NCBI GenBank assembly: GCA_000004695.1
Contig: CM000152.2
Location: 2,912,001-2,976,000, forward strand
DNA from: Dictyostelium discoideum
Lineage: Eukaryota
Direction of reading: 5' to 3'
DNA: 64,000 nt
Below are positions 30,956 to 35,600 of the stretch, one piece after another. Each line of letters begins with the position of its first letter. Position 1 is the stretch's first letter. A program made the translations under genes and the position numbers. The notes under the pieces were generated by a model. The model ran no database searches, was not told the DNA's origin, and worked only from the letters and a program-made list of their open reading frames with translations.

Positions 30956-33900
30956 CTAATCATCATGATTTTGGTTATCATTTTCATCATTATTATTAAT
31001 ATTATTATTGTTGTTTTCACTATTATTATTATTATTATTGGTATTATTATCGTTATTATTATCATTATCACCATCACTGTTGTTATCAAAATTTGAATGA
31101 TTATTAATGTTCGAAGTACTGTTTTTAATAAAACTGCTATTATTTGAAGTTACAATATCAGATTCAAAATTAAAAGCACTAATATTGCATGCATTTTTAT
31201 TATTTGACATTAAAGAACGTTTGAAAATATCCAACAATGATTTTCTAAAAGAAGGCATTTTTAAGATGAAATTTGCTTCGTCAATGATTTGAAAATTTTC
31301 AGAAAAGAATCTAACAGCCTCATCCAACAAGAATGATGATTCATAAATTTCTGTTAATTTGAAAATACTATAAATATTATCGATACTATATTTCTTTATA
31401 ATTAAAGTTTCACAAATCATTTTTAATCTTGTAATCATAAATCTATTTGCCGCAATAAATAATTGAATATAATCTTCAAATCCTAATCCATTTGATTGTA
31501 TATTATTATTATTATTATTATTATTATTATAGTTATTTCTATTATATTCTTCAATATTAATATTATTATTATTATTATTATTATTATTATTATTATTATT
31601 ATTATTATTATTATTATTATTATTATTATTATTATTATTTATATTATCATTATCATTATTGCTAAATTGATTATTACTATTAATATTAATATTATTATTA
31701 TCACCATCATTCTCAATACCATTTGAATTTGTTAATGTGCTATCATTATTATTACTATTATTATTATTTATATTATTATTATTATTGTTGTTGGTATCAA
31801 AATTATTAGCATCAGAGCTGTTATTACTATAATTACTATTATTATTTTCGATATCTAAATTGTTTAAAGATAAAGATTCAATTTCACCAGTATATAAATA
31901 TTGCATAACTAATAAAAATGTTGAATGTGGTACAGATTCAATTTTAATTTCTGATTCTAAACTTTCTTTTAATGGTGTTTCAAACATTGCCCTAAAATAA
32001 TCTGATCTTGCACAAAGTATACCTCTCCATGCATAAATTGGTTTATCTTCAACAATAAATGTAATATCTTTATATAATGGATTATTTACTAAATATGACA
32101 TATCTCTACCTAATGAGCACATTGGAATTTGATTATCATTTGAATTATTATTACTATTACTATTATTACTACTATTATTATTATTAGTGTTATTATTGTT
32201 ATTATTATTATTTGAATTTATATTTTTTAAAGCTCTAATTTTCTTTGATAATAAATTCATTAAAAGTTTTGGAGATTTATGAATTTCAGCATTATTTTGT
32301 AATAGATAAATGATACAAAGGATATCATTTTTTTTAACTGCTTCATGAATTGCGGGTGTTGAATTAAAGTAACCATCATTTACATCAGCACCACGACTAA
32401 CTAAAAGTTCTTGCATCTTTAAATTACCATTAACTACAGATTTATGAAGTGGTGTTTGATGTTGATTATCTAAACTAAACAACTCTGTTGTCTTATCACA
32501 ATAATCCAATATCAATTGAGTTATATAATATTCATTGGCTGAAACTGATAAATGTAATGCATTTCTATTATCTTTTGTAAAAATGGTTGGATCTGCTCCT
32601 TTCTCTAATAATAATTTTACAAATGATCCTTTACCTCTAATAATTGCTTTATGTAATGGTGTAAATCCATCTTGATCAACTATATTAATTTTTAATGGTG
32701 TAATTGATTTCTTATTACTATTATTATTATTACTATTTAATGATGATGATGGAGATGATGATAATACTGCTGATGATGATGATGATGTTGTGGTTATTAT
32801 TGGTAATGATGACGATGATGGTGTTGTTGTTGTAGACTGTGAATTATTTTGTTCAATATGATCATTTCCAGTATAATCATTATTATTTTCAGATGATACA
32901 TATTCTAAATTATTATTATTATTATTATTATTATTATTATTATTATTATTATTATTATTATTATTATTATTATTATTATTATTATTATTATTATTATTAT
33001 TATTATTATTATTATTATTATTATTATTATTACTATTACTATTATTATTACTATTATTATTATTATTAGCATTTAATAATTCATTTGAATTTCTTTTAGT
33101 TCTATTATTAAAGGATATGATTGGACAAGGTTTTTTATCTACATTTTTATCACTACAACCATATTTAACCAAAAGTGAGAGTAATTTAGGATCACCTAAA
33201 AACACAGCCCAATGTAGTGGTGATCTACCTTGTTTATCAGCTAAATTTAGATCGGCACCCCATTGAATTAAAGTTTCAACACACCACATTCTATTGACTC
33301 TAATTGCCAATTCCAATGGAGTAACTTTTGAATTAGTTTTAGCATTTACCAGCGCACCATGTTTAACTAATAACCTTGCGACCTCCAAATGACCATTCAT
33401 TACGGCTTTATGCAATGGTGTATAACCTTCGTAATCTTTACAATTGATATCGGCACAACCAATAGTTATCAATACTTCTGCGGTTGGTAAATCACCATTA
33501 TAAGCACACCAATCGATTGGTGTTCTACCACGAGAATCGGTTATATTTGGATTGGCACCCAACATCAATAACAATCTAACTGTATCATAGAAACCTCTAT
33601 ACGATGATAAATGTAATGGACTTAATCCCCAATCACTATTGGTTTCTCTATGTTTCTTTTTTGTGAAATCATTTACAATCTCCATTTGTAACTCTATAAT
33701 TATTGAATCATCAACAACTTTTAAAAATCCACTACCATTTGAATCATATAATGATGATAATTTCATAAATTGTGGAAATCCCCAATCTTCAACATTTTCT
33801 TTAAATCTTTTACCTTCAACTTTTTTTAAAAAAAAAAAAAAAAAAAAAAAAAAAAAAAAAAAAAAAATGATAATTAATATTTATATTTAACTTATATTAT

Positions 33901-35600
33901 TATTATTATTATTATTATTATTATTATTATTATTATTATTATTATTATTATTATTATTATTATTATTATTATTATTATTATTATTATTATTATTATTATT
34001 ATTATTATTATATATACATACCTTGTCTTGTAAATTTTGTACCATTTTTTTGATCAATTAATGAAAATTTAAAACTAACTAAAAAGAACCAATCTGGTGG
34101 TAATATTGATTTATCAGCTACTTTTAAATAAACTGAAAGATTGTTACCACCATTTTTACCTTTTGGATAGAGGGCGATTGTCCATCTACAATTACCAACT
34201 TTAAAGATAGGACTAGTTGCACGTTCTTTCATAGCGGAAACATTATTGATTTTCCAAGTGTAAATTGAAGTTTCATCATTTTGATAGGAACTATTATGTA
34301 AAACCTCGATTTTAAATTCAACCAATAAACAGTCATTCAATAGCCAACCTGATTTCTTATCTTTTAACATCTCCTTCTTTAAGATTTGAGAGAACCCCAA
34401 ATCCGTATGATTTCTATGAAATCTATGAGCCAACACTTCTCTAATGATTTTCTTTGATTGATCGAATTGATTGGTGATTGTGAATGTGAAATTGGCCATA
34501 TGCGACCATCCCTCTGATAAAGACTCATAATTTGCCACCTCCAAATACAGCGATAGATTATCGTCATCTTTTGAACCACGCGGATATGCCACGAGTTTCC
34601 AAGAGAATCCACTCACTAAAAAGGTGTTACTCTGAATCTTTCGATCCTTAATCTTTGAGAAATTCTCAATCTTCCAATTATAAATACCCGTGCCATTGCT
34701 TATGGAATAGGTCAGTGGTAAACCTGGATTCGATGGTAGCTTTTCATTGATATCGGCACCATAGGAAATCAATGGTTTCAAACAATCTTTCCAATTATTT
34801 TGAACTGCATACATCAATGGTGTATAACCTTCATGATTTTTCATATTAACATTCACTTGATTATTAGCCAACAATCCATTATTTGATGCATACTTTAATA
34901 TTGCCTCTATTGAATCTGCATGACCAAAAAATGCTGCTTTATGTAAACATCCATCACCTTTCTCATCTCTTTTATTTATCTTTTTCCAATCTTTTTTTAA
35001 TAATTTATTAATTAATTCTGTATTACCTTTTCTAGCTGCTTCAATTATTTTTGATGTACTAGTTTGTTGATTATTTACACCACCATTATTATTATTGCTA
35101 TTATTATTATTATTATTATTATTATTATTATTACTATTACTATTATTACCATTATTACTATTATTTAAGGTTGATCCTGTAATATTAACATTCGTACTAT
35201 TATTAATATTATTTAAATTCGTATTGTTATTATTAATATTGTTAATATTATTATTATTATTATTATTATTATTATTATTATTATTATTATTATTATTATT
35301 ATTATTATTATTATTATTATTATTATTATTATTATTATTATTATTATTATTATTATTACTATTATTATTGATGTTATTTATATTACTATTACTACTACTA
35401 TTGTTGTTATTGTTGTTGGGTATTGAAAATCCAATGGTAATATTACTATTATTATTGTTGTTATTATTTATATTATTACTATTATTAATGAGATTTATCG
35501 AGTTTGCATTATTATTATTATTGCTATTGCTATTACTATTGCTATTGCTATTGTTCATATATCCAGAGGAAGATGGTGATGACGATGCACTGTTTGACAT
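30956..35600 (-). CDS. Single MATH-MATH-ankyrin-BTB/POZ protein of about 1,490 aa. The track ORFs 34008..35600 and 30956..33766 join across a 202-nt intron. Exons 34022..35600 and 30956..33819
   Basis: The second MATH domain begins in the upstream exon (YTWKINNVSAMKER...KFTRQ). A GTATGT donor at 34021 follows. After an (ATT)n-filled intron and a T-run plus AG acceptor at 33820, it finishes with VEGKRFKENVEDWGFPQFMKLSSLYDSNGSGFLKVVDDSIIIELQMEIV, the canonical MATH C-terminus. Ankyrin repeats follow (GANPNITDSRGRTPIDWCAYNG...), then a BTB domain (ITFIVEDKPIYAWRGILCARSDYFRAMFETPL). Confidence 0.75.

Follow-up and report, generated by a model that had tools for sequence, protein, structure and literature searches.

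A two-exon gene of Dictyostelium discoideum predicted to encode a tandem-MATH, ankyrin-repeat BTB protein

On the minus strand of a 64,000-nucleotide (nt) stretch of Dictyostelium discoideum chromosome 3 (assembly GCA_000004695.1, contig CM000152.2, positions 2,912,001 to 2,976,000 of the forward strand; hereafter the window), two long open reading frames (ORFs) follow each other at 34008..35600 and 30956..33766. An earlier reading of the window, made from its letters without database searches (the sequence-only reading), had proposed that both belong to one gene whose single intron cuts through the second of two MATH domains, and that the product resembles the cullin-3 adaptor SPOP. Here we analyze this locus with respect to its gene structure, its conservation among dictyostelids, its domain architecture and its likely function.

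Organization of the locus

The gene is located between a gene encoding an S10 carboxypeptidase and med11/DDB_G0280109. The latter was identified by exact look-up of ORF 36262..36693, which corresponds to the putative Med11 of AX4 (XP_641247). On the other side, ORF 26222..27214 represents one exon of the S10 peptidase XP_641244 (AX4), whose protein sequence maps to 26225..28089. The gene in between consists of the following parts.

34022..35600, minus strand: exon 1, with the start codon at 35600; 1579 nt, equalling 526 codons plus one base; encodes the Asn-rich N-terminus, the N-terminal ankyrin block, the first MATH domain (MATH1) and the first ~76 residues of the second (MATH2)
33820..34021, minus strand: spliceosomal intron of 202 nt, phase 1, GTATGT...(TAA)39...T40 AAAAAAAG, 97.5% A+T
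30956..33819, minus strand: exon 2, with the stop codon at 30956-30958; encodes the remainder of MATH2, two central ankyrin blocks, the BTB domain with 3-box and an Asn-rich tail

A phase-1 intron joins the two ORFs

Joining exon 1 (35600..34022) to exon 2 (33819..30956) results in a coding sequence without internal stop codon for a protein of 1,480 amino acids (aa), slightly shorter than the approximately 1,490 aa estimated in the sequence-only reading. Taken alone, the upstream and the downstream ORF would give products of 530 and 936 aa, respectively. As had been noted from the sequence, ORF 34008..35600 terminates in the middle of a domain: its C-terminus reads ...GTKFTRQGMYI before the stop, and the final four codons are read-in to the donor GTATGTATATAT (GTATGT) at 34021. 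Conversely, the frame of ORF 30956..33766 is open upstream of its first methionine back to 33819 and reads VEGKRFKENVEDWGFPQF-MKLSS; starting at 33819, the translation ahead of this methionine is (V)EGKRFKENVEDWGFPQF. This stretch had been taken for the missing half of the MATH domain, and it does complete the domain profile (see below).

The acceptor consists of the T40 run followed by AAAAAAAG, which ends at 33820 and places the AG at 33821-33820. As exon 1 comprises 1579 nt, the junction is of phase 1 (CAA G / TT GAA) and is translated as Q-V-E, exactly as proposed before; the predicted spliced junction sequence is ...ACAAGACAAG joined to TTGAAGGTAAAAG. Around the junction, nine GT-AG combinations maintain an open frame, but 34021/33820 is the only one that yields both the 1,480-aa product and a gap-free match to the orthologues. 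The eight other in-frame pairs were rejected, as they delete or replace conserved residues.

The base composition differs strongly between the segments, with a G+C content (GC) of 2.5% in the intron versus 26.7% in exon 1 and 23.3% in exon 2, at 21% for the whole window, which also contains long Asn-rich tracts. Stop codons close each of the intron's three frames. Introns of D. discoideum have a reported mean of 132.6 nt and a median of 104 nt (PMC4683709), so that 202 nt is nothing unusual in this species. Altogether, the interval combines the donor and acceptor, the open joined frame, the A+T bias and the stop codons of a Dictyostelium GT-AG intron with collinear orthologues and an intron position shared with one of them.

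The junction is conserved among dictyostelid orthologues

Six orthologues with 50-67% identity are collinear with the spliced product and gap-free across the junction, at which the valine is invariant. They stem from Synstelium polycarpum (P0001), from 3-kb contigs (P0002-P0005) and from Heterostelium album (P0006, PPL_07904), and their consensus over the junction is ...KF(T/S)R-x-VE(G/S)K-x-FK-x-x-VEDWGFPQF(M/F)KL.... A dictyostelid protein of 1,179 aa (P0129) is likewise continuous across this position, and on one 3-kb contig (L002) the orthologue is present as one uninterrupted ORF of 970 codons. In H. album, the orthologous gene has an intron of 67 nt (GTAAGT...TTATTAG) in the same Val codon and in the same phase (ACC AGA CAA G / TG GAA GGA). 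The gene order is also common to both species, with a kinase gene, Med11 on the opposite strand and the ANK-MATH-BTB gene following each other in D. discoideum (window 26225-40211) and in H. album (L001 1-7654).

PPL_07904, the S. polycarpum protein and the 1,179-aa protein exhibit the same ANK-MATH-MATH-ANK-BTB architecture at 59-67% identity. Differences concern the H. album gene, which possesses two further introns (about L001 5550-5619 and 7006-7072) that D. discoideum lacks, and the Asn-rich insertions of the D. discoideum protein, which are missing in the orthologues. Within this analysis, the family was seen exclusively in dictyostelids and in environmental or sequencing-run contigs.

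The comparison also bears on the public H. album gene model. PPL_07904 (GL290990.1) drops 621 in-frame nt as an intron (L001 4409-5029), a segment which forms an open frame that encodes MATH1 in full together with what remains of the ankyrin block at the N-terminus. It is part of an uninterrupted frame at L001 4262-5311, which shares 65% identity with the D. discoideum protein. At 942 aa, the PPL_07904 model has probably lost about 207 residues to a mis-called intron, and the finding that it appears to lack its first MATH domain for this reason is a useful by-product of the analysis.

The gene model is already present in public annotation

The annotated gene model was reached via the neighbouring Med11 with 10-kb flanks. 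In GCA_054883475.1 (CM142509.1), one gene with a product of 1,480 residues is annotated between the S10 peptidase and Med11 (L003 4711-9345). Its span of 4,635 nt equals 30956..35600 of the window except for one gap, an intronic T30 in place of T40. Subtracting 1,481 codons from this span leaves 192 nt, which is exactly one intron (192 nt there versus 202 nt in the window), and splicing at the junction equivalent to 34022/33819 gives a protein identical to that derived from the window. With the same locus, the same DNA apart from the T run and the same product length, the two genes show no difference of substance. The annotated gene is presumably the dictyBase/AX4 gene between DDB_G0280109 and the S10 peptidase gene. 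The expectation that automated annotation would split the gene in two was therefore not borne out, while splice signals, phase, orthologues and the annotated model agree with the proposal that there is a single gene, that its only intron cuts the second MATH domain and that the junction lies at exactly 34022/33819.

The S10 peptidase next to it points in the same direction. Its protein maps onto the window via two introns of 88 nt each, which start with GTAAGA and GTATGT and end with AATAG; as these introns are annotated, annotation of D. discoideum routinely joins ORFs across introns of this kind.

Searches at the protein level were less informative. No protein record was found by exact look-up for the spliced product of 1,480 aa, for a variant starting at Met15 or for either single-ORF product, an absence that is no evidence in itself. 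No protein from Dictyostelium sensu stricto came up in a word-index homology search; this absence is equally uninformative, because a MATH-only query also lost known orthologues that had been found before. A literature search on the presumed identifiers (DDB_G0280107 and its neighbours, Q54VW0/Q54VV9, XP_641245/6 and EAL67280) yielded nothing. Two MATH-BTB proteins with ankyrin repeats had already been listed for the D. discoideum proteome (Stogios et al. 2005, PMC1257465, Fig. 5 legend). Public annotation and literature taken together, neither the gene model nor the domain architecture is new. Reading domains across a GT-AG gap recovered the correct gene model from raw sequence; as this model is public, the result matters little beyond bookkeeping.

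Domain architecture of the spliced product

Pfam searches on the 1,480-aa product revealed the domain order ANK-MATH-MATH-ANK-BTB/3-box. The order MATH-MATH-ANK-BTB of the sequence-only reading is contained therein; what it had missed is the ankyrin block at the N-terminus. The features are, from N- to C-terminus:

aa before 183: Asn-rich N-terminus
34740..35054, minus strand: N-terminal ankyrin repeats, aa 183-287; Pfam Ank families, conserved in the orthologues
34308..34682, minus strand: MATH1, aa 307-431; PF22486 2-136/136, with a degenerate DWGF motif (TDLGF)
33677..34250, minus strand: MATH2, aa 451-574; PF00917 1-113/113, split by the intron after aa 526
33819..33677, minus strand: part of MATH2 encoded in exon 2, carrying the conserved DWGFPQF motif at 33787..33767
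33155..33631, minus strand: central ankyrin block 1, aa 590-748
32705..33154, minus strand: low-complexity linker of 150 aa separating the central ankyrin blocks, aa 749-898
32279..32704, minus strand: central ankyrin block 2, aa 899-1040
31871..32131, minus strand: SPOP-type pre-BTB linker and first part of BTB, aa 1090-1176; PF00651 (from aa 1106) and SPOP alignment
about 31964-31972, minus strand: Cul3-contact loop L-K-E-S, within the first part of BTB
31490..31870, minus strand: Asn-rich insertion of 127 aa in BTB, aa 1177-1303; absent from all orthologues
31208..31489, minus strand: second part of BTB and 3-box-like helices, aa 1304-1397
aa after 1397: Asn-rich tail

A hidden Markov model scan, which the sequence-only reading had named as a check, placed one complete MATH domain across the junction: exon 1 alone matches positions 1-72/113 of the Pfam MATH profile (37 bits), whereas the spliced segment matches 1-113/113 (67 bits). 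The MATH_2 profile correspondingly matches the spliced MATH2 over 2-135/136. The DWGF motif would be missing from an unspliced product, since exon 2 supplies it. In an AlphaFold2 model covering aa 296-587 (mean predicted local distance difference test score 76.5), two beta-sandwiches share the same strand pattern; a strand at local residues 227-238 spans the splice junction and exon 2 contributes the last strands of MATH2. Top Foldseek matches of this two-MATH model were the TRAF-like domain of USP7 and the MATH domain of SPOP, with target TM-scores near 0.8.

The match to the Pfam BTB profile covers 7-79/110 with the Asn-rich insertion in place and extends to 6-109/110 after removal of these 127 aa. 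The possibility that this insert is a second intron was rejected, as the annotated span accommodates only the single intron of 192 nt. For the annotated 1,480-aa gene (L003 4711-9345), the precomputed Pfam entry is empty despite its ANK, MATH and BTB domains.

The product resembles SPOP in its MATH2 and BTB/3-box modules

At least one complete MATH domain thus precedes the BTB domain in the same polypeptide, as identified by Pfam and, for the MATH fold, by AlphaFold2 and Foldseek, and the same order is found in SPOP, the plant BPM proteins and MEL-26 of Caenorhabditis elegans. SPOP alignments of both modules agree with the SPOP-like character assigned to them in the sequence-only reading. Once the insert is taken out, the best solved relatives of the BTB/3-box region are those of SPOP (E = 1.6e-16, SPOP 180-330), ahead of KLHL and KBTBD proteins. 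SPOP residues L186, L193 and I217, which we take to be dimer-interface residues, are identical in this alignment. In the alpha3-beta4 loop, the sequence M233-E-E-S of SPOP corresponds to L-K-E-S, so that M233 is replaced by leucine while E235 and S236 are kept. Met233 of SPOP, like Phe130 of KLHL11, inserts into a pocket of Cul3, and the Ser and Glu following Phe130 in KLHL11 form hydrogen bonds to Cul3 (Canning et al. 2013, PMC3597819). At the level of the sequence, the protein therefore has a long-form BTB domain with a 3-box and a Cul3-contact loop of the hydrophobic-x-E type.

MATH2 aligns end to end with the MATH domain of SPOP, with Y87, F102, D130, W131, G132 and F133 kept; of the peptide-groove residues Y87, F102, Y123, W131 and F133, four out of five are retained. 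For MATH1, the best match in structure as well as in sequence is the TRAF-like (MATH) domain of USP7/HAUSP (E = 7.5e-8; Foldseek TM-score about 0.8). Among solved structures, the MATH domain of SPOP is likewise one of its best matches. Unlike the D. discoideum protein, USP7 is a deubiquitinase and has only one MATH domain and no BTB, and MATH1 lacks the Trp of DWGF.

D. discoideum has a Cul3-like cullin. A working model would be that the BTB/3-box module dimerizes and docks onto the N-terminal domain of the cullin, with the MATH domains capturing substrates through short linear motifs. As MATH2 has kept the DWGF groove of the SPOP/USP7 type, it would be the stronger candidate for substrate binding compared to MATH1, and the ankyrin blocks would serve as a spacer and/or as an additional binding surface. 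The best-supported reading is that of a putative dimeric cullin-3 substrate adaptor, which would recognize short linear motifs via MATH2 and possibly also via the ankyrin repeats and MATH1. The analysis establishes the exon-intron structure, the domain content and the conservation of both junction and architecture; that the protein binds a cullin and substrates and serves in ubiquitylation is predicted by homology.

Several points weigh against this assignment. The residue corresponding to SPOP Y123 is a lysine in MATH2, and MATH1 has lost the Trp of DWGF, with a Leu at the position of SPOP W131. MATH2 and the pre-BTB linker are about 515 residues apart (aa 575-1089), a stretch filled by ankyrin repeats and low-complexity sequence, so that the compact MATH-BTB arrangement is not found here, and the BTB domain itself is interrupted by the 127-aa Asn-rich insertion. 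Because of the spacer, the geometry of the adaptor may differ from that of SPOP, BPM and MEL-26, in which MATH and BTB are adjacent. Compared to these proteins, which have one MATH domain, the D. discoideum protein has two, with ankyrin blocks before MATH1 and between MATH2 and BTB in addition to the BTB insert. The likeness to SPOP includes the pre-BTB linker, the dimer-interface residues, the Cul3-contact loop and most of the MATH2 groove residues; for the C-terminal oligomerization region of SPOP, no homologue is demonstrated in the protein. In addition, the splice call itself is based on the logic of the sequence, on the orthologues and on a gene model that already exists.

It might therefore be asked whether the gene is spliced as described while its product has a role other than that of a cullin-3 adaptor, with a BTB domain that merely oligomerizes or is disabled by the insertion and with MATH and ankyrin domains that act as a scaffold. 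The 127-aa insertion within BTB and the long ankyrin spacer, which is atypical of MATH-BTB adaptors, would fit such a role, and, as is generally known for the family, Cul3 binding is absent from many BTB proteins (Stogios et al. 2005). However, the insertion is placed between conserved helices and does not occur in any of the orthologues, and the protein resembles SPOP in the Cul3-contact loop, at the dimer interface and in the 3-box region alike. We therefore regard a non-adaptor role as unlikely.

Weighing these points, we favour, with a probability of roughly 95%, a single two-exon D. discoideum gene with a phase-1 intron through MATH2, which encodes an ANK-MATH-MATH-ANK-BTB/3-box protein and most likely a cullin-3 ligase adaptor. 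The product may be filed as working like SPOP, but with a variant architecture and not as a canonical member, because the long ankyrin spacer departs from the compact MATH-BTB arrangement. As an uncharacterized tandem-MATH, ankyrin-spaced BTB protein of social amoebae, it is possibly of modest interest for the cullin-3 adaptor field, since its substrate-binding domains are located far from BTB.

Simple repeats in the intron and intron retention

The intron is largely made up of the T40 run (33828-33867) and a perfect (TAA)39 microsatellite (33895-34011), with a short A+T stretch in between. The difference between T40 in the window and T30 in GCA_054883475.1 may be a polymorphism or a homopolymer assembly error.

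One could imagine that the intron of this single gene is often retained, (TAA)39 and the variable poly-T tuning the efficiency of splicing. Translation would then halt four codons into the intron, giving rise to a 530-aa ANK-MATH protein that lacks BTB and competes for substrates, or the transcript would become a target of nonsense-mediated decay. The intron exceeds the median length for the species and mostly consists of two length-variable simple repeats (T40 versus T30), as such a scenario would have it; yet nothing points to actual retention, a MATH2 truncated in this way would miss three strands along with DWGF and probably would not fold, and the T-run difference may be due to assembly. 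Frequent retention is therefore highly improbable. Equally far-fetched at present is the broader notion that the intron is a regulated switch, in which (TAA)39 and T30-T40 modulate splicing and the retained form antagonizes the full-length adaptor. The same holds for the separate idea that the ANK-MATH-MATH-ANK-BTB family constitutes a functionally distinct, multivalent class of cullin-3 adaptors.

Two independent genes, one for an ANK-MATH protein with a truncated second MATH ending at GMYI and one for an ANK-BTB protein starting at the MKLSS methionine, are essentially excluded: each ORF alone does have an ATG and a stop, but the protein from the first would break off halfway through a beta-sandwich (MATH 1-72/113), the 16 codons ahead of MKLSS are open, conserved and domain-completing, the spacer has splice signals and 2.5% GC, an orthologue has its intron at the same place, public annotation gives one 1,480-aa product, and neither ORF product has a protein record, whereas the products of neighbouring genes do.

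Neighbouring features of the window

Between the S10 peptidase gene and the ANK-MATH-BTB gene, the region 28500-29700 shows a raised GC fraction (0.23-0.27) and harbours short minus-strand ORFs (29138..29377 and 29485..29694); the annotated assembly calls no gene there. Two minus-strand ORFs of 939 and 533 aa at 43422-48307, whose sizes mimic the 936 and 530 aa of the ORFs studied here, were considered as a tandem paralogue and rejected, as they share no similarity with them. One of these looks APC5-like by reading of its sequence, while the other (46706..48307) is the FNIP-repeat protein DDB_G0280115 of AX4 according to an exact look-up. Finally, the minus-strand ORFs 37312..38649 and 38760..40211 are parts of a single annotated kinase gene coding for 1,147 aa (L003 10677-14492), with a GTAAGT donor near 38783; this represents another case within the window of separate ORFs forming one gene.

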